From Dehalococcoidia bacterium (GTDB lineage Bacteria > Chloroflexota > Dehalococcoidia > Lucifugimonadales > UBA1123): DNA of 64,000 bases. Below the pieces are notes generated by a model that did no database searches, was not told where the DNA came from, and worked only from the letters and a program-made list of their open reading frames with translations. The stretch spans positions 940-64,939 of the forward strand of contig JAGWBK010000013.1 in NCBI GenBank assembly GCA_021295915.1, written 5' to 3'. Every line of letters starts with the position of its first letter. Within the stretch, counting starts at the first letter, position 1. Positions 21,293-58,479 of this stretch are shown piece after piece. The position numbers were made by a program, and so were the translations under genes.

Positions 21293-21688
21293 ATGTGCCC
21301 TGGCTCAGGCGTCTACAAGGCACCCTCAGTAGTCTGTAGACATAGCTGGTACAATGCGGGCGTGAATCGGTTCGGATACAACGTTGATGAAGTCGTTGCG
21401 ACGATTCGGTCTTCACACCCACAACGACACCATAGGTTCATCGACTCTCATGTGCGAAACCTTCTCGTAAGTGGGCCAACATTTATTCTCAAGGCGTATC
21501 GTTCAAAGACACGAACGATCTCCATACATCTATTGAAGCTCAGTGAAGCCCAACTCAACGCTGAAGCGGAACCCAGTCCGTACACTCTCGGCCTGGTGAG
21601 ATACTATGTACGTGAACTTGACCGTCTAAACGCCGAGTTGCGTATCCTTGAAGAAGCTATGTCTGGAGCGCAGATTCCGTACCTGTAA
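21293..21688 (+). CDS. hypothetical protein (AT-richer patch)
   Basis: ORF only, with no recognisable motif. The start is uncertain; GTG near 21362 is possible. Confidence 0.35.
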   Translation: MCPGSGVYKAPSVVCRHSWYNAGVNRFGYNVDEVVATIRSSHPQRHHRFIDSHVRNLLVSGPTFILKAYRSKTRTISIHLLKLSEAQLNAEAEPSPYTLGLVRYYVRELDRLNAELRILEEAMSGAQIPYL

Positions 21689-21732
21689 CACACAGTTGTC
21701 TCCGACAGGCATATCTTGGAGGGAGATTTGCA

Positions 21733-22068
21733 ATGAGCCTGAAGCCGGAATCACTCAGACCCATGGACATAGCTGCCCTGCGTCCATCTCTAACGGGTAG
21801 GGAGGGTACTGAGGCACTGGTGATAGTTCACGCGGCAATTGAAGAGCTTCAGGCAACTGCCGATCGGCTCACAGGGCCACTGCCAGAGCAGCAGAGAAAG
21901 CTGTCGACTGACGATGAGGCAGGTCTGATCGAACTCATCACCGATCTCAGAGACCTGTTTGAGCACGTCGGCGGGCACTGCGGCGAGGCGGCTGAAGCAC
22001 TTTGGAACGTAACAGAGCTGCTGGCAACTGAAGGCTCGGCAACTAAGCACAAGACCGCTGAGAACTGA
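21733..22068 (+). CDS. hypothetical acidic helical protein
   Basis: ORF with GGAGGGAG RBS upstream of ATG 21733; no recognisable motif. Confidence 0.45.
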   Translation: MSLKPESLRPMDIAALRPSLTGREGTEALVIVHAAIEELQATADRLTGPLPEQQRKLSTDDEAGLIELITDLRDLFEHVGGHCGEAAEALWNVTELLATEGSATKHKTAEN

Positions 22069-22099
22069 CCAAACTAAAGCAATCCCAGGAGACTGATAT

Positions 22100-22948
22100 A
22101 TGAGTGACCAGGGCTACGCCAGACCAGAGTTGCTGGCGACCACGGAGTGGCTTGCTGAGCATATAGACGACCCCAACGTCCGCGTGGTGGACTGCGATCC
22201 GTTCGACCCGTACCTGCGGGCGCACATCAAGAACGCTGTCGGCATCCGCGTGCACCACTACATCAAGCACCCGGACTATCCGTCGGCGCCGAAAGAGTAC
22301 CCTCTGGTCGCCGAGCCGGACGTGATGAAGGAACTGATGGAGAGCATGGGCATCGGCGACGACACTCTCGTCGTCGCGTACGACAACTCAGGCAGCCTGA
22401 ACTCGGCGCGCTTCTGGTGGGTGCTCAACTACTATGGGCACACCAACGTGAAGGTGCTCAACGGCGGCTGGAAGAAGTGGTTCGACGAAGGTCACCCAAC
22501 CTCGGTAGACCGGCCTCCGGACGTCGGAGAGGTCACGTTCACCCCGAAGACCGACGACTCGCTGGTCTGCACGCTCGACTACGGCGTCGGGCAGGTCGGC
22601 AACGACGACACGGTGTTCTGGGACGTGAGATCCGACGGTGAGTGGGACGGCTCAAACGACAGGGGCAACGCACGAGCAGGTCGGATACCGGGCGCCATTC
22701 ACCTGGAGTGGCTGAACCTTCTCACCGACGACCGCCACCGCATGTTCAAGCCCGCGTCCGAGCTGAGATCCATGCTCGATGCGATAGGAGTCACGCCCGA
22801 CAAGAACGTCGTCACCTATTGACAGGGCGGCATCCGTGCGGCGCACGGTGTGTTTACCCTGAGGCTCCTCGGCTTCGACAGGACGCGCAACTACGACGCC
22901 TCCATGGGCGAGTGGGCGAACCGTGAGGGCACGCCTCTGGAGAATTAG
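22100..22948 (+). CDS. two-domain rhodanese (thiosulfate/3-mercaptopyruvate sulfurtransferase) with in-frame TGA at the catalytic Cys position; candidate selenoprotein
   Basis: The ORF-track CDS stops at TGA 22820-22822 in ...DKNVVTY[TGA]QGGIRAAHGVFTLRLLGFDRTRNYDASMGEWANREGTPLEN, ending at TAG 22946-22948. The post-TGA codons encode the rest of the active-site loop and the conserved NYDxSxxEW tail. Confidence 0.7.
22830..22851 (+). promoter_or_regulatory. SECIS-like hairpin downstream of the in-frame UGA
   Basis: CCGTGC (22834-39), GGC loop, GCACGG (22843-48). The stem extends through A22832-T22849 and C22831-G22850 with T22833 bulged. The G-containing apical loop lies about 18 nt after the UGA. 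Confidence 0.5.
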
Positions 22949-23090
22949 GAATTGAGAATAGGGAATGGAGAAGTGCGCTCCATTAGAGGATAGCTGAACA
23001 CACCTCAGACACTGTCGTGAGTTCGTTGAGAAAGGTCTTAACTCCTCCACATTGCTAATTCACCATTCAACATTCACCATTCACAAATAG
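22943..23090. repeat. Rep-E inverted-repeat cassette, empty copy (E2)
   Basis: Left arm GAATTAGGAATTGAGAATAGGGAATGGAG. Right arm CTAATTCACCATTCAACATTCACCATTCACAAATAG. It contains the rhodanese stop codon and abuts ATG 23091. Confidence 0.75.
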
Positions 23091-24209
23091 ATGGGCTGGT
23101 CAATTCACCATCCGGTGGGCCTGATCCACCACTCGCCGATGTTCTCGTACAAGGGCTACACGCTCGTGTTCTCAAACGCGGGCAAGTTCGTCGCGCTGCT
23201 CGACATGGACGGTCGAGTGTGCCACAGGTGGGAGTACCACGAGGGCCTGACCTACGCGGTGCTGCTTCCGAACGGCAACCTGCTGGGGCGTACTCCCCCG
23301 CCGCCGGATTTCGAGCCGACACGCGGGCTCGGCGGCTCTGGCGGCTCGATTGTCGAGCTCGACTGGGACGGCGTGAAGGTCTGGGAATACCGCGATCCCT
23401 ACATGCACCACGACTACGAGAGGTCGCTCACCGGCAGCACGTACTACCTGCTGTGGGAGGAGATGCCCGCCGATCTGTCCACGCGAGTCCGGGGCGGATA
23501 CAGGACGCCTGAAGACCCTGTATTCATGCTGGGCGACGCGGTCCGCGAGGTCAACATGGACGGTGAGGCCGTCAACGAGTGGCGCGTGTGGGAGAACCTG
23601 TCGATCGAGAGCCAGGTGATCTGTCCGCTGGAAGGCAGGCGCGAGTGGACCCACGCCAACTCGATCCACGTGACCAGGTCTGGCGACTTCCTGCTTAGCT
23701 TCAGAAGCACAAGCAGCGTCGTTCGGGTGTCGCGAGAGACGGGTGAGATCACCTGGGAGTGGGGCGCAGGCGAGGTTAGCCACCAGCACCACGCCACCGA
23801 GTTGGAGTCCGGCAACATCCTGATCTTCGACAACGGCTCGCACTCCAGGAACAGGGCGGCGTCGCGCGTGATCGAGGTCAACCCTGACACGAACGAGATC
23901 GAGTGGACCTACGAGGGCAACCCGGCCGTATCATTCTTCAGCTCGTACATCAGCGGCGCCGACAGGCTCCCAAACGGCAACACGCTCATTTGCGAGGGTG
24001 CCCACGGTCGGCTGTTCGAGGTCACGCACCACGGCGAGATCGTGTGGGAGTTCATCAACCCGTTCTTCGCACCCGACAGAAGCGGCCGCAACCTGAGCAA
24101 CGCGATCTTCAGGGCACACCGCTACGCCCCCGAGTTCTCCGGCTTCACCGGCCGCGACCTCGACCCCGCCCGCTACGCCAACCTCAACCGGGTACTGGGA
24201 GTGAGGTAG
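23091..24209 (+). CDS. arylsulfotransferase (ASST)-like beta-propeller protein
   Basis: HHDYERS...THANSIHVTRSGDFLLSFRSTSSVVRVSRETGEITWEWG...HQHHATELESGNILIFDNG matches the Arylsulfotran_2-type pattern. Confidence 0.7.
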   Translation: MGWSIHHPVGLIHHSPMFSYKGYTLVFSNAGKFVALLDMDGRVCHRWEYHEGLTYAVLLPNGNLLGRTPPPPDFEPTRGLGGSGGSIVELDWDGVKVWEYRDPYMHHDYERSLTGSTYYLLWEEMPADLSTRVRGGYRTPEDPVFMLGDAVREVNMDGEAVNEWRVWENLSIESQVICPLEGRREWTHANSIHVTRSGDFLLSFRSTSSVVRVSRETGEITWEWGAGEVSHQHHATELESGNILIFDNGSHSRNRAASRVIEVNPDTNEIEWTYEGNPAVSFFSSYISGADRLPNGNTLICEGAHGRLFEVTHHGEIVWEFINPFFAPDRSGRNLSNAIFRAHRYAPEFSGFTGRDLDPARYANLNRVLGVR

Positions 24210-46829: not shown

Positions 46830-47590
46830 CTTCATCGTCTGGGTTCCTCAACATCGCACACCGTGGAGCTTCTGAATATGCCCCCGAGAACACGTTTGCG
46901 GCTTACGACAAGGCGCTCGAATTGGGAGTTAACCATATTGAGATCGACGTCCACTTCAGCCGCGACGGCCATATCGTCGTCATACATGACGACACACTGG
47001 ACCGCACCACTGACGGCTCCGGCCCCGTCGCTGACCTGACCCTCGCTGAGCTCCGTGAACTCGACGCCGGATCGTGGTTCGGGTCCGAGTACGCTGGTGA
47101 GCGAATCAGGACCCTGGCCGAGCTCTTCGAGCACTACAAGGGACGGTTGCACTTCCACATCGAGATCAAGGCCCGCGCTGAGGGGCTGGCGAGTCGAGTA
47201 GCCGACATGGTCAGGGCACACGGGATGACCGACGACGTCACGATTACGTCGTTCTGGAGACCGTGGCTCGACGAGGTGCGAGAGTACGCACCTGAGCTGA
47301 CCACCGGCTGGCTGGTGCCGCTCGGACCTGTGGACTGGGACGACTCGATCATCGAACAGGCTGTCGCTCTTGGACTGGACCAGGTCTGCCCCAGAGCGAA
47401 CATCACGACCCCTGAACTGGTCCGCACGCTCCACGAGCGCGGATTCGTGGTCAGGTGTCAGGGCGTGTACAGCGAGGATCTCATGCGACACGTCGTCGAG
47501 TGCGGCGCGGACGGCATGACCATCAACTTCCCGGACAAACTCACTGAATACCTAGCCCTCAGACCAGGTGGTCAAAGGGTAGATGTATGA
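46826..47590 (+). CDS. glycerophosphodiester phosphodiesterase
   Basis: [19 protein letters not shown]...[28 protein letters not shown]. Confidence 0.9.
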
Positions 47591-48337
47591 CATTAGGCCA
47601 GGCTGGAGGTAGGCCCATTCAGGAAAAACCGACTAAAGTACTTGTTATCGGCTCGGGGCCGATCGTCATTGGCCAGGCTGCGGAGTTCGACTACGCAGGC
47701 ACGCAGGCGTGCAAGGCGCTGCGAGAGGAAGGCGTCACTACCGTCCTCGTGAACTCGAACCCGGCGACGATCATGACCGATGAGGACATCGCCGATGTCG
47801 TCTACATCGAGCCCCTGACCATCGAGGTACTGGACCGGATCATTGACCAGGAGCGCCCCGACGGGCTGCTGCCGACGCTCGGAGGTCAGACCGGCCTCAA
47901 CCTCGCAGTGGAGCTTGCCGACGCCGGCATCCTGGACAAGTACGATGTGCGACTGCTCGGCACTCCGCTTGAGACTATACGCAACGCCGAGGACCGCGAG
48001 CTGTTCAGAGACCTGCTGGTGAGCATCGGAGAGCCTGTGCCGCCGTCTGAGATAGCAGAGTCTGTGGAAGACGCCTACCGGGTCATGGACGACATCGGTC
48101 TGCCGTTGGTCATTAGGCCCGCGTACACGCTGGGCGGCACCGGTGGAGGCATCGCCAACACCGTCGATGAGTTCGACCAGTTCGTCAGGAGCGGCCTCGC
48201 AGCGAGCCCCATCACCCAGGTGCTGGTCGAGAAGTCGCTGGTCGGCTGGAAAGAGATCGAGTACGAGGTGATGCGCGACGGCGCGGACAACTGCATCACC
48301 ATCTGCAACATGGAGCGTCCACACCGGCGACAGCATC

Positions 48338-50932
<2,595 letters not shown>

Positions 50933-50947
<15 letters not shown>

Positions 50948-55275: not shown

Positions 55276-55563
55276 TCAGCAGATCTCTTTGTAGAGGTCT
55301 AGCCACCTTGGATTTTCTTTCTCGATCAGTTCGATCTTCCATACTCGTCTCCACTTCTTGAGGGCGTTTTCTCTGAGTATGGCGCTTTCCATGGTCTCGT
55401 GGACTTCGTACCAGACGAGGTTGTGGACGTTGTAGCGCTTGGTGAATCCCTCTGCGAGGTTGTTCTTGTGCTGCCAGACGCGTTGTATGAGGTCGGAGGT
55501 TACTCCGATGTATAGGGTGCCATTGCGTTTGTTCGCAAGGATGTAGACGCAGGGGAGTTTCAT
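55276..55563 (-). CDS. GIY-YIG nuclease family protein (UPF0213-type)
   Basis: MKLPCVYILANKRNGTLYIGVTSDLIQRVWQHK...ENALKKW. Only the last 95 codons of the 266-codon ORF are genic. Confidence 0.88.
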   Translation of the reverse strand: MKLPCVYILANKRNGTLYIGVTSDLIQRVWQHKNNLAEGFTKRYNVHNLVWYEVHETMESAILRENALKKWRRVWKIELIEKENPRWLDLYKEIC

Positions 55564-55639
55564 GTTGGTTCTCCAGGGTGTGTTTTCTGCTCTCGTTATT
55601 CGCCGGAATGGGGCGTCGGGGGTGTCGAAGGGCGAGGTG

Positions 55640-55925
55640 TGTGGGCGAGGTGTGGATTCCCGCTTCCGCAGGAATGACGGGTGGAGGGCCGGGAATGACG
55701 TGTGGAGGTGTTGGGATTGACGAGTGGGGTGGTGGATATTAGGGGCTGGGGTACCGGGTGTATCGAATGGGGTGCGAGGAATGGCTACTGGGCGTGGGGA
55801 TGGACAATGTGAGTAGGCGAGGTGTGGGTTCCCGCTTTCGCGGGAATGACTAGGGGAGGATAGGGAATGACGAGTGGGGAGCCGGGGGTGACGGATGGAG
55901 GTTCGAGGGTGACGAACGGAGGTCT
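55640..55925 (+). repeat. G-rich degenerate tandem array of ~21-nt units derived from the Rep-B right arm
   Basis: GGGAATGACG-like cores occur at 55671, 55691 and 55713, then at 55842, 55863, 55884 and 55905, with a 20-22 nt period. Confidence 0.7.
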
Positions 55926-55964
55926 GGGTATGTCTATTGTGGAGTTGTATGGAGTGCAATGGGG

Positions 55965-57371
55965 TTAGACCCATATCTTGGTGATTCTTCGGTTGATGAG
56001 TTGGGTGATGGCCCAGACGAGGGCGTCCATGCGGTCGGGGGAGACGTCGGCTGGGCCCTTTGGGGTCCAGGTGCACATCTGGTCTTCGAGGTCGGGGAAG
56101 GTGCCGACGTGGTGGACCTTGCCCTGTTCGTAGAGTGCTGCGACCGGCTCGGCTCGGGCGTACTTGCCTCGGCTGGCATTCACCGACACGTACCTGAAGG
56201 TCTGTCGGCCGGATGCGGTGCGCAGCACCTCTTTCACAAGGTCGCCGCCGTTGTTGACCTCTCCTATGATCCGGTCGGCGCTGTGCTTGTCGTAGAGGGC
56301 TATGGCTCGCTCTGCCCAGCTGTTGGGAGACATTCGGCCTGAGCCGTCGGCGATGACGTAGTAGTGCTTGTCGGAGTCGACTCCGGCGACGACTATGCCG
56401 GTCTCGTCGCTTCGGGCGTTGGATGTTACCGCGGGGTCTATGGCTACGACGACCTGCGCAAGACTTTCGGGAGCAGTCTTTAGCCGTGCGTCGTCAATCC
56501 ACTGTCTCTCCCAGAGGGCGTCCTCTGACTGGTCGAGGAGGTCTGCGTGTATTTCCTGTCTTCCGGTGCGGGTGCCCTCGTACTGCGCCCTGATGTTGGA
56601 GTAGAAGCTGGGTGCCAAGTTGTCCTCGTTGTCGTAGGTGGTGCCTCGTGTGACCACCACGTCGGGTCGGGCTACAAGCTCTCTGAGTAGGGCTACCGGC
56701 TTGGGAGTGGTGGTGACCACACAGCGGGGATCGGAGCCGAGCCTAAGGGCGAACGCTAGGTTGTCCCACGTGTCGCGAGGGTACTTCCAAGATGCGAGCT
56801 CGTCGCACCATGCAGCGTCGAACTGCGGGCCTCTGAGCTGGTCGGGCTCGTAGCTTGAGAAGAGGAACGCTGTTGCTCCGTTGGGCCACGTCAGCTTTCG
56901 CTTAGTGGACTCGTACTCGGGCATTGCCCATGGAGGGCAGATGCTGAGGATGCCGGACTCGCCCTGGATCATGGTGTCCCTGATCTCGGCGGGAGTGCGG
57001 GCGACAAGGGCGATTCTGCCAGCTTTGCCTGATTCGACCTGTGATCGTACCCACTCTGCGCCGGTGCGTGTCTTTCCGAAGCCGCGTCCGGCGAGGAGTA
57101 TCCACGCGGTCCAGAGTCCGTCGGGCGGAGTCTGGTTCTCCCTGGCCATTAGCGGCCAGCGGTACCTGAAGCGCAGGTGTGGGTCGGGCGGCAGTGTGTG
57201 CCGCATCGACAGTGTGGCGTCGATGCGGGCGTCGTCCTGTGAGACGGAGTCGAGACGTGCGTTGAGTCGGGGTTTAGTGGACATAGCTACTGCCTGGTCA
57301 GGGGAAGTGGCCCGAGTTGGGGCCTGCGCCGTACTGGACGGAGCCTCTGAACCTGCCCCTGTCTTCGTCAT
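55965..57371 (-). CDS. phage terminase large subunit (GTA/TerL type)
   Basis: WILLAGRGFGKTRTGAEWV (Walker A) plus a C-terminal nuclease half. An alternative start at ATG 57284 would remove the 74-nt overlap with the upstream ORF. Confidence 0.8.
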   Translation of the reverse strand: MTKTGAGSEAPSSTAQAPTRATSPDQAVAMSTKPRLNARLDSVSQDDARIDATLSMRHTLPPDPHLRFRYRWPLMARENQTPPDGLWTAWILLAGRGFGKTRTGAEWVRSQVESGKAGRIALVARTPAEIRDTMIQGESGILSICPPWAMPEYESTKRKLTWPNGATAFLFSSYEPDQLRGPQFDAAWCDELASWKYPRDTWDNLAFALRLGSDPRCVVTTTPKPVALLRELVARPDVVVTRGTTYDNEDNLAPSFYSNIRAQYEGTRTGRQEIHADLLDQSEDALWERQWIDDARLKTAPESLAQVVVAIDPAVTSNARSDETGIVVAGVDSDKHYYVIADGSGRMSPNSWAERAIALYDKHSADRIIGEVNNGGDLVKEVLRTASGRQTFRYVSVNASRGKYARAEPVAALYEQGKVHHVGTFPDLEDQMCTWTPKGPADVSPDRMDALVWAITQLINRRITKIWV

Positions 57372-58479
57372 GAAGTCTGCAGTCGGGATGTCCGCAGTCG
57401 ATGTAGATCGACCTTCCGAGCTCGAACATCAGCTTTCGTCTGTGCTTTGAGCGAGTGGGAGGACCGGGTTCGGGTTCCGGGGTGGATTCAGACTGCTGAA
57501 CCTCTTCCGCCACGGCTGACTGACGCTCGGCTTCTTCTTTCTCTCTGCGTTCTCTGTCGGCTTTGATCTGCTTTCGGCGTTCGATCTTGGTGTCGATCAT
57601 TGCATTGAACTCGCCGAGTTCTCTGGCGACGATGGCCTCGTATTCTTCAGGGTCCAGTGAGTTCTTCCACTCGTAGAACCACTTCTCGGAGTTCTCCCAT
57701 GCCTGGTCGTAGGCGGAGAGATCGCGTTCATAGGGTGGATTGTCGGGGTGCTGTTTGGCGAGTTCTGCCTTTATGCGGTCGTCTTCGTCGAGGATTGGTG
57801 TGACCAGTTCGATGAAGGCTGACCAGTCGGTGTCGTCTTCTGTGGGGGTGGGGGTGTCTGACCCCGTATCGGAGTACGGGGTGACGTTACTTTGATTTGT
57901 CGGATTAGGGGATTTTTCTGATTTTGTTGGTTGGGGGCTTGGTTTTGAGGTGTGGGGTGGGGTTGGTTGGTAGTCCTGGTTTTCTCCCCCGTATCGAGTA
58001 CGGGGCAGGCTCTCACCCCAGCCCTCTCCCGCTGGGAGAGGGGGTCTTTGTCTTGCGTGTTTGCCGAAGCCTCGGGTTAGGAGTTCTCTGGCTGCTGAGA
58101 TGCGGTGGTGGGGTTTGAAGGCTTTGAGTTGGCCTTCCATGACGTTGATCAGGAAGCGGCAGACTTTGGCTCCATCATCGGTGGACTCTTGGATCTTCTT
58201 GGCTAGGGCGAGGTCGAACTCGGAGTCGTCTGGGGAGCTGGAATCTGTCCTGTGTCGGGATGGCTCGCGTGGGTTGTCGAGGATGAAGGCGATGGCCTGG
58301 CCACGTTCCGTCGTGGCGGGTCCGCGGCAGTTGCAGCCGTACTTCGTGAGGAGCCGTGCGGCGTCGAGCCTGTGGCACAGCTTGAAGTCGGGGCGTTCTT
58401 CCCTCATGACTTCGATTAGGAAGTCTATGATGAGGTCGCCGTTGTCTGTCTTTGCCTGGATTCTTTGGGCTAGGTTCAT
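57298..58479 (-). CDS. hypothetical phage-associated protein (duplicated N-terminal helical module; possible small-terminase role); central part built from palindromic repeats
   Basis: Duplicated LAQRIQAKTDNGDLIIDFLIEVM / LAKKIQESTDDGAKVCRFLINVM modules. Rep-A and two Rep-D copies lie in-frame at 57860-58047. Confidence 0.5.
   Translation of the reverse strand: MNLAQRIQAKTDNGDLIIDFLIEVMREERPDFKLCHRLDAARLLTKYGCNCRGPATTERGQAIAFILDNPREPSRHRTDSSSPDDSEFDLALAKKIQESTDDGAKVCRFLINVMEGQLKAFKPHHRISAARELLTRGFGKHARQRPPLPAGEGWGESLPRTRYGGENQDYQPTPPHTSKPSPQPTKSEKSPNPTNQSNVTPYSDTGSDTPTPTEDDTDWSAFIELVTPILDEDDRIKAELAKQHPDNPPYERDLSAYDQAWENSEKWFYEWKNSLDPEEYEAIVARELGEFNAMIDTKIERRKQIKADRERREKEEAERQSAVAEEVQQSESTPEPEPGPPTRSKHRRKLMFELGRSIYIDCGHPDCRLHDEDRGRFRGSVQYGAGPNSGHFP

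Follow-up and report, generated by a model that had tools for sequence, protein, structure and literature searches.

Probable selenocysteine at the catalytic position of a two-domain rhodanese from a Dehalococcoidia bacterium

Rhodaneses in which selenocysteine (Sec) replaces the catalytic cysteine have been predicted before. A 'Rhodanese-related sulfurtransferase, COG2897' with a predicted selenocysteine insertion sequence (SECIS) was described as a new selenoprotein family on the basis of three sequences from the Sargasso Sea (Zhang, Fomenko and Gladyshev 2005, PMC1088965). The Global Ocean Sampling (GOS) survey of 2008 reported eight sequences for cd01449 and one for COG2897 (PMC2398784), and a 2026 review lists the family as 'form 4, UxxG'. 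We have studied a gene of this kind in a stretch of 64,000 nucleotides of DNA from a Dehalococcoidia bacterium (contig JAGWBK010000013.1), which we call the window. The gene lies at 22100-22948 on the forward strand and has an in-frame UGA at the position expected for its catalytic cysteine. A preliminary description of the window had proposed it as a selenoprotein and had pointed to a precedent from ocean metagenomes. The precedent is real, and since the family had already been predicted in 2005 and 2008 the finding is less novel than that description implied. What follows is a confirmation and extension of a known, computationally predicted selenoprotein family, and not the discovery of a new kind.

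We conclude, with a probability of about 0.9, that 22100-22948 is a single gene of 282 codons encoding a two-domain rhodanese-type sulfurtransferase (COG2897/SseA-like), the catalytic residue of which is Sec encoded by the UGA at 22820-22822. The coordinates given earlier for the locus all proved correct on direct reading of the sequence and of the list of open reading frames (ORFs) with their translations; these include the 240-codon ORF ending in TGA at 22820-22822 and the 41 open codons that follow it up to the TAG at 22946-22948. The parts of the gene are:

22087..22091, + strand: Shine-Dalgarno-like AGGAG, 8 nucleotides 5′ of the ATG at 22100 (read from the sequence).
22100..22819, + strand: first part of the coding sequence, 240 sense codons to ...DKNVVTY (ORF list, translation, PF00581 match, 1UAR alignment).
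22820..22822, + strand: in-frame UGA, probably read as Sec (U241), at the position of the persulfide-forming catalytic cysteine (alignments to structures and homologs; 82 of 82 loci).
22823..22945, + strand: second part of the coding sequence, 41 sense codons, QGGIRAAHGVF...NYDASMGEWANREGTPLEN (frame conserved in 82 loci).
22946..22948, + strand: true stop codon TAG (sequence and translation).

The first part encodes an N-terminal rhodanese domain of the inactive type (approximately codons 14-128), followed by the greater part of the C-terminal catalytic domain. The 41 in-frame sense codons 3′ of the TGA read QGGIRAAHGVFTLRLLGFDRTRNYDASMGEWANREGTPLEN, and hold the remainder of the active-site loop U-Q-G-G-I-R together with the C-terminal helix region.

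With cysteine put in for the stop, the 282-residue product matches the rhodanese family PF00581 in two stretches (E = 3e-35). It aligns over its full length with the Thermus thermophilus rhodanese 1UAR (E = 9e-43) and also with Azotobacter vinelandii RhdA (1E0C; E = 4e-33). Alignments from end to end were likewise obtained with 8K55, with the mycobacterial SseA/CysA proteins (3HZU, 3AAX) and with bovine rhodanese (1RHD), the E values ranging from 9e-43 to 1e-26. In the printed alignments the catalytic cysteine of 1UAR, 1E0C and 8K55 falls exactly on the TGA ('vvyCriaers', 'vthCqthhrs' and 'vayCrigers'), and more than 50 metagenomic homologs read TGC or TGT at this site, within the otherwise identical loop CQGGIRAAH. 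The placement of the TGA at the catalytic cysteine, as first proposed, is thus borne out. In the N-terminal domain, Asp95 in ...VVAYDNSG... aligns with ...VVLYGDKN... of 1UAR, and is taken to be the probable equivalent of the catalytic residue in that domain.

The catalytic residue of the C-terminal domain sits in a loop of six residues, U-Q-G-G-I-R. The classical signature of thiosulfate sulfurtransferases is CRKGVTA and that of 3-mercaptopyruvate sulfurtransferases is CG[ST]GVTA; the sequence UQGGIRA fits neither. Among NCBIfam models the greatest similarity was to NF008557 (the 3-mercaptopyruvate sulfurtransferase equivalog, SseA-type), at 102.5 bits against a cutoff of 250. NF041203 gave 32.5 bits against a cutoff of 115, and the window protein is therefore not a member of that family. 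The two PF00581 stretches and the motif U-Q-G-G agree with the definition of the COG2897 'form 4' UxxG Sec rhodanese. Judged from these alignments, the fold and the catalytic position appear certain; we would call the protein a rhodanese by fold, and assign it to no substrate class.

We fetched DNA for 80 species-level genomes and two long contigs, making 82 loci. The catalytic codon is TGA in 82 of 82, and TAA, TAG or a sense codon in none. In each locus the TGA is followed by an invariant QGGIRAAH and some 40 conserved in-frame codons before a genuine stop is reached, and the base after the UGA is C in every sequence. The carriers come from about five phyla. Most are metagenome-assembled genomes (MAGs) of Dehalococcoidia/SAR202, and there are others from Thermodesulfobacteriota, Binatia and Candidatus Entotheonella, as well as a Gemmatimonadetes MAG. 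The closest relative is the Dehalococcoidia chromosome OY762210.1 (locus L003), with about 96% DNA identity over the region. The structure of the gene, and the position and conservation of its UGA, are in this way directly observed.

Is the frame beyond the UGA translated? Past the hairpin that is described below, the mean pairwise differences at codon positions 1, 2 and 3 are 0.138, 0.113 and 0.502, and in the 20 codons upstream they are 0.269, 0.171 and 0.581. The codon-usage score 3′ of the TGA is close to that of the 5′ part (0.44 versus 0.46). The concentration of variation in third positions shows directly that the downstream frame is translated and under purifying selection, as expected from the earlier view that it is conserved rhodanese coding sequence. 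A further expectation was that standard gene calling would truncate such a gene and leave it without its active site. The best 120 database homologs (64-90% identity) are 238-247 residues long, with one exception that has a long N-terminal extension, and all span only the first 85% of the read-through product. It follows that gene callers cut them at the same codon, and each of the 120 indeed ends at the TGA.

The coding sequence just 3′ of the UGA can fold into a hairpin. The published model of the bacterial SECIS (bSECIS) has a loop of 3-9 nucleotides, an upper stem of 4-16 bp, a G within the first two loop positions, a spacing of 16-37 nucleotides between UGA and loop, and a minimum free energy (MFE) of ≤ -7.5 kcal/mol (PMC13188914). 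The hairpin of the window, CCGUGC-GGC-GCACGG, has a GGC loop and 6 bp, with 11 nucleotides from the TGA to the stem and 17 from the TGA to the loop. Its folding energy taken alone is -8.0 to -8.7 kcal/mol (-10.7 kcal/mol for the family consensus). It agrees with the model in every one of these respects, and the bacterial SECIS geometry ascribed to it in the preliminary description is upheld. The structural features are:

22834..22848, + strand: core of the predicted SECIS, a 6-bp stem (22834-22839 / 22843-22848) with the apical loop GGC at 22840-22842 (comparative analysis and folding).
22823..22861, + strand: extended stem-loop predicted for the window sequence only (MFE -21.1 kcal/mol; lower helices not conserved).

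The perfect 6-bp stem noted earlier stands. The bulge that had been placed at T22833 is instead U22849 in the MFE fold, where the extension pairs U22833 with G22850. The segment 22820-22870 has an MFE of -21.1 kcal/mol, and the stem, of 6 bp in the window, has 7 bp in most relatives. RNAalifold retains only the helix at 22834-22848. The lower helices of the window fold are poorly kept, the column pairs 4-42, 7-39 and 12-33 forming in only 29-35 of 63 sequences. The extended lower stem was therefore dropped as a part of the SECIS because it is not conserved in relatives, and we claim the apical hairpin alone.

We examined selection on the hairpin through codon entropy, calculated for 129 conserved degenerate columns in 80 distinct genes. 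Entropy is zero at four columns only, namely Tyr240 (TAT, immediately before the UGA), Ala247 (GCG), Ala248 (GCG) and His249 (CAC), and it is near zero at Gln242, Ile245 (ATC in 78 of 80) and Arg246 (CGT in 76 of 80). All other degenerate columns have 0.4-2.3 bits. The hairpin nucleotides also encode the active-site loop, which accounts for the freezing of the peptide QGGIRAAH as well as of its codons.

Homologs that have this same peptide together with a cysteine (TGY) codon provide a comparison in which the peptide is held constant. They were supplied by a metagenome scan; a 62-residue C-terminal query gave eight matches (a number limited by the word index) and was the source of the first such cysteine forms. 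The hairpin codons ATC CGT GCG GCG CAC are invariant or nearly so in the 80 distinct genes, with 0-0.3 bits in the TGA forms, whereas the same five codons vary in the cysteine homologs, with an entropy of 0.8-1.7 bits. Of the 73 TGA forms, 68 keep the six-pair stem; of the 51 distinct cysteine forms, one keeps it (Fisher p ~1e-27, for sequences that are related and not phylogenetically independent). The hairpin thus appears to be statistically coupled to the UGA and not to the encoded peptide, and the constraint at the level of the RNA, present with the UGA, is itself a direct observation.

The sole exception among the 51 cysteine forms is a TGC form (L097, Ga0101943_1000111) that keeps the exact Sec-type hairpin ATCCGTGCGGCGCACGGA. 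From its sequence it looks like a recent switch from Sec to Cys that retains a fossil SECIS. A compensatory change was seen once, C14 to A with G28 to U in Entotheonella. There is also a second TGA clade with the sequence V-U-QGGIRAAQSAL (metagenome contigs L109, L125, L129 and L149). Its hairpin, CAGCGCA-GUC-UGCGCUG, lies 23 nucleotides past the UGA and again has a triloop beginning with G; it would constitute an independent SECIS solution.

More distant members of the family were compared as representatives of clusters at 50% identity. Full-length representatives carry C at the UGA site, as in ...TYCQGGVRA.... At least 23 of the 150 best (P0158-P0307; 36-62% identity) stop one residue before the catalytic position, in ...VVTY, ...IIAH or ...IHTY, and these are interleaved with the full-length cysteine forms. 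The distribution suggests that the two-domain rhodaneses include many additional Sec clades, and the interleaving indicates that switching between Sec and Cys is widespread within it. An 88-residue fragment from an ENA contig of 1.2 kb (P0124) reads ...EIVTNRQGGIRAAHG..., with Asn-Arg replacing the Tyr-Sec of its relatives; the change may reflect an error of sequencing, or the catalytic residue may really have been lost.

For the machinery of Sec insertion we turned to a relative. Locus L036 is contig MPND01000034.1 of the SAR202 cluster bacterium bin90, and carries an ortholog 72% identical to the window protein, with both TGA and hairpin. The accession MPND00000000 belongs to bin90, which comes from the sponge Aplysina aerophoba and is a SAR202 symbiont (Slaby et al. 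2017, PMC5649159); its published COG counts are three for SelA (COG1921), one for SelB (COG3276) and one for SelD (COG0709) (Table S4, PMC5649159). All three proteins are present in five of five SAR202 bins of that study (Slaby et al. 2017, PMC5649159). SelA and SelB are present together in most of the sponge-symbiont bins, and are missing from most closely related reference genomes (PMC5649159). tRNA(Sec) species, including unusual 8/4 forms, and selenoproteins have been documented in Chloroflexi. Locus L002 contains a gene of DUF3179, a known selenoprotein family. It was considered as a nearby second selenoprotein and rejected: the gene is a cysteine form here (FCPLCNS), and so is uninformative on the decoding of Sec.

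A number of observations weigh against the reading of the UGA as Sec. The published accounts of the family contain no experimental proof of selenium in any member, and no dedicated selenoprotein model in NCBIfam reaches its cutoff with the window protein. ARAGORN found no tRNA in the 64-kb window. In the 60 loci scanned with the same program it found tRNA-Asn only and no tRNA-Sec, although an 8/4 tRNA(Sec) might be missed. Pfam scans of about 45 ORFs revealed no selA, selB or selD in the window, and a tblastn search of the window and the 82 loci with E. coli SelA, SelB and SelD as queries gave no match. The link to the Sec machinery is indirect, through a published COG table for the relative with the 72%-identical ortholog. 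Folding of the single sequence is not exceptional (z = -1.1 against shuffles, at 60% GC), and with a single fold so unremarkable the case for a SECIS rests on the comparison across relatives. Within that comparison the support from covariation is minimal because the hairpin is so conserved, amounting to the one compensatory event, and four sequences have a U17-to-C change that breaks a pair. Rfam gave no match on the window at gathering thresholds, and for 22700-23000 at E ≤ 10 a single chance match to a long non-coding RNA. The element is thus unrecognised by any Rfam family, a result that is uninformative since no model in the library matches the hairpin.

Standard bacterial Sec insertion is nevertheless the best-supported reading. 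SelB bearing Sec-tRNA(Sec) would bind the apical hairpin at 22834-22848 while the UGA occupies the A site, and Sec would be delivered to the UGA as residue 241, outcompeting release factor 2. Translation would then go on for 41 codons to the TAG, and so complete the catalytic domain with its loop U-Q-G-G-I-R. We infer the substrate by analogy with the cysteine rhodaneses, in which case the selenolate would attack a donor of sulfane sulfur (or selenium). The resulting enzyme-Se-S(-) (or Se-Se(-)) intermediate might then transfer its sulfane atom to an acceptor.

How else might the UGA and the hairpin be explained? The TGA might have arisen as a sequencing or assembly error for TGC or TGT, as it is a single base from a cysteine codon. 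This chance is negligible: dozens of independent assemblies, from differing projects and technologies, all read TGA, and the TGA co-occurs with a hairpin that true cysteine forms lack. Hardly less improbable is a nonsense pseudogene, or a genuine protein of 240 residues that has no active site, for which the downstream frame would be a relic. Every automatic annotation does give a product of 238-247 residues, and a carB gene in the same window seems to be frameshifted, indicating that disrupted genes occur in this assembly. Yet the codon is TGA in all 82 loci across some five phyla, the next 40 codons run in frame to a real stop, and the substitutions are mostly in third positions, where a relic would have gained stops, insertions and deletions, and non-synonymous changes. 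It had been foreseen that close orthologs genuinely ending at this codon would refute the proposal; they do not end there, for the frame continues in 82 of 82 loci. We take the translation of the downstream frame under selection to rule out both error and pseudogene. A general reassignment of TGA to sense in this organism has an equally negligible probability. TGA terminates 13 of the 35 Pfam-supported genes of the window, being an ordinary stop for these, from which it follows that the code is not reassigned; and the TGA at 22820-22822 is the only one in the 64 kb that is flanked on both sides by coding-like sequence.

The hairpin might alternatively follow a genuine stop and serve as an intrinsic terminator or attenuator, and a simple terminator scan does flag 22834-22848 followed by TGTGTTTACC. 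However, one such match is expected by chance (1.3 in shuffled sequence), the T-rich tail is not conserved, relatives reading GAGTGTTCAC, GAGTATTCGT and similar sequences that are Val-Phe codons, and what lies beyond the hairpin is conserved as protein. We regard a terminator as very improbable. A somewhat greater, still small probability attaches to a UGA that is recoded with a residue other than Sec. This might be cysteine, inserted in a SelB-dependent manner by a tRNA(Sec)-like tRNA(Cys) whose anticodon is UCA, or it might be Trp, Cys or Arg entering by near-cognate read-through stimulated by the hairpin. Sequence data cannot identify the amino acid that enters at a UGA. The unusual 8/4 tRNA(Sec) species have been reported in Chloroflexi, and the group reporting them is said also to have described tRNA(Sec)-like tRNAs that insert cysteine. 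UGA-C, the arrangement in all of our sequences, is moreover a leaky context for termination. On the other side, the site is that of the catalytic cysteine, where exchange of Sec and Cys is the classic signature of a selenoprotein. Trp or Arg would inactivate the enzyme, yet there is purifying selection in more than 80 species, and Cys could be had from a TGY codon, as it is in many homologs. The hairpin also fits the model of a SECIS of the SelB type, and SelA and SelD, which are needed only for the synthesis of Sec, appear in the published table for a MAG with an ortholog. On these grounds we infer that the residue inserted is Sec.

Two features lie 3′ of the rhodanese gene:

22949..23082, no strand assigned: imperfect inverted repeat, intergenic and given as context only (24-nucleotide arms, 75% complementary).
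23091..24209, + strand: arylsulfotransferase-like beta-propeller gene (PF05935, E = 6e-19; PF14269, E = 2e-18).

The next gene had been described as arylsulfotransferase-like, and the two Pfam matches agree. A repeat cassette was said to separate the genes; what is found there is the imperfect inverted repeat, with arms at 22949-22972 and 23059-23082 built of GAATKG-like units. GAAT-rich sequence resembling it is also present 3′ of the gene in close relatives.

An arylsulfotransferase-like gene lies directly 3′ of the Sec rhodanese on the same strand in 39 of the 82 loci, down to 50-57% protein identity. The loci with the pair (L001, L003-L030, L033, L055-L064 and L075) fall into two Dehalococcoidia subclades, in one of which the rhodanese is 65% and the arylsulfotransferase-like protein 52-57% identical to the proteins of the window. 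Other Dehalococcoidia subclades and the other phyla lack the pair, L002 being an example. Part of the family has thus kept the two genes together, and the arrangement may be functional. The proposal of a sulfur/selenium-transfer neighbourhood is partly supported, to the extent that the pair is conserved. A bolder view is that the Sec rhodanese and the arylsulfotransferase-like propeller form a selenium-dependent module of SAR202/Dehalococcoidia, a lineage-defining adaptation rather than an interchangeable variant of a Cys rhodanese. We think this rather unlikely. Were it true, the module might act on organosulfur compounds or sulfate esters, or might move selenium about as a carrier of perselenide, and it would be an adaptation of abundant marine and sponge-associated Chloroflexota that automatic annotation has hidden.

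On the 5′ side, the rhodanese gene is closely preceded by a segment of about 720 bp (21360-22082) that is missing from OY762210.1 (L003), where about 15 bp are found. Its ORFs (21293-21688 and 21733-22068) have no Pfam match, and by this comparison it is evidently a strain-specific insertion. The rest of the window contains many genes for CoA-transferases, enoyl-CoA hydratases, luciferase-like monooxygenases and transporters of the major facilitator superfamily, with a molybdopterin oxidoreductase, a repertoire that we take to be typical of SAR202. The carB gene mentioned above (carbamoyl-phosphate synthase large chain, 47587-50947) is split into the overlapping ORFs 47587-48834 and 48338-50947, with a junction near 48310-48330. 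There the sequence reads N-M-E and then jumps frame, apparently with the loss of a few codons from the usual NMEN.DP.GVHTGDS segment; the break is either a short deletion with a frameshift (a pseudogene) or an assembly error. On the minus strand, 55276-58479 encodes a GIY-YIG nuclease, a large terminase subunit (PF03237, PF17289) and a 393-residue ORF that falls in no family, within an otherwise metabolic region. These genes are probably what is left of a prophage, and the GC skew shows a jump that begins near 54 kb.

The family is systematically mis-annotated in public databases. Its members are entered as products truncated to 238-247 residues (P0001-P0120, P0142 and P0155), such as MCH8186105.1 ('sulfurtransferase') and MCI0438648.1 ('hypothetical protein'), both of 239 residues, and the JGI label for the truncated products is 'thiosulfate/3-mercaptopyruvate sulfurtransferase'. 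For the 240-residue product of the window itself, an exact look-up yielded no entry. Surveys of selenoproteomes and metabolic reconstructions of SAR202/Dehalococcoidia and of sponge symbionts would consequently miss the Sec rhodanese. Yet the clade is large, all of the 120 best clusters ending at the UGA codon, with 80 species-level genomes in about five phyla. The Sec and Cys forms with the same peptide provide a natural experiment, in which the synonymous sites of the hairpin are frozen in the Sec forms alone. The hairpin offers a ready-made and very compact SECIS (15-19 nucleotides) for studies of recoding. The main interest, which is modest, lies in how large the clade is among SAR202 and sponge symbionts, in the control given by the comparison of Sec with Cys, and in the conserved partner gene.

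Compared with the bSECIS consensus of the E. coli fdhF type, the window element is similarly a stem-loop within the coding sequence just 3′ of the UGA, with a small loop that starts with G followed by G or U, a spacing within 16-37 nucleotides and an MFE ≤ -7.5 kcal/mol. It differs in its very short loop of 3 nucleotides and its stem of 6-7 bp. Across phyla the hairpin sequence of the window family is almost invariant because the same nucleotides encode the active-site loop; binding of SelB to it is predicted. With the cysteine-containing tandem rhodaneses (1UAR, 1E0C, 3HZU, 3AAX and 1RHD) the window protein shares the two-domain architecture and aligns over its full length. The catalytic residue is placed as in RhdA (CQTHHR) and 1UAR (CRIAER), in a six-residue C-x4-R loop, the difference being that the window protein would have Sec in place of Cys, in the loop UQGGIR. 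Other Sec rhodaneses, namely form 1 (UxxS, Geobacter), form 3 (NF041203, rhodanese_LYCAU, CxU) and TsoB (NF045694), are alike in the rhodanese fold and in having Sec at or near the active site, but are single-domain or fusion proteins with other motifs.

The closest likeness is to the COG2897 selenoprotein of the Sargasso Sea and GOS surveys. Both are marine two-domain rhodaneses with predicted Sec at the position of the catalytic cysteine in a motif U-x-x-G (U-Q-G-G in the window), and both have a SECIS hairpin just downstream with G in the apical loop. The descriptions, architecture and motif of the published COG2897 references (AACY01016424, MCY3690685.1) suggest that they belong to the same subfamily. 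The earlier reports comprised few sequences, whereas here the Sec clade extends to well over 120 clusters at 90% identity and to 80 species-level genomes, mostly of SAR202/Dehalococcoidia.

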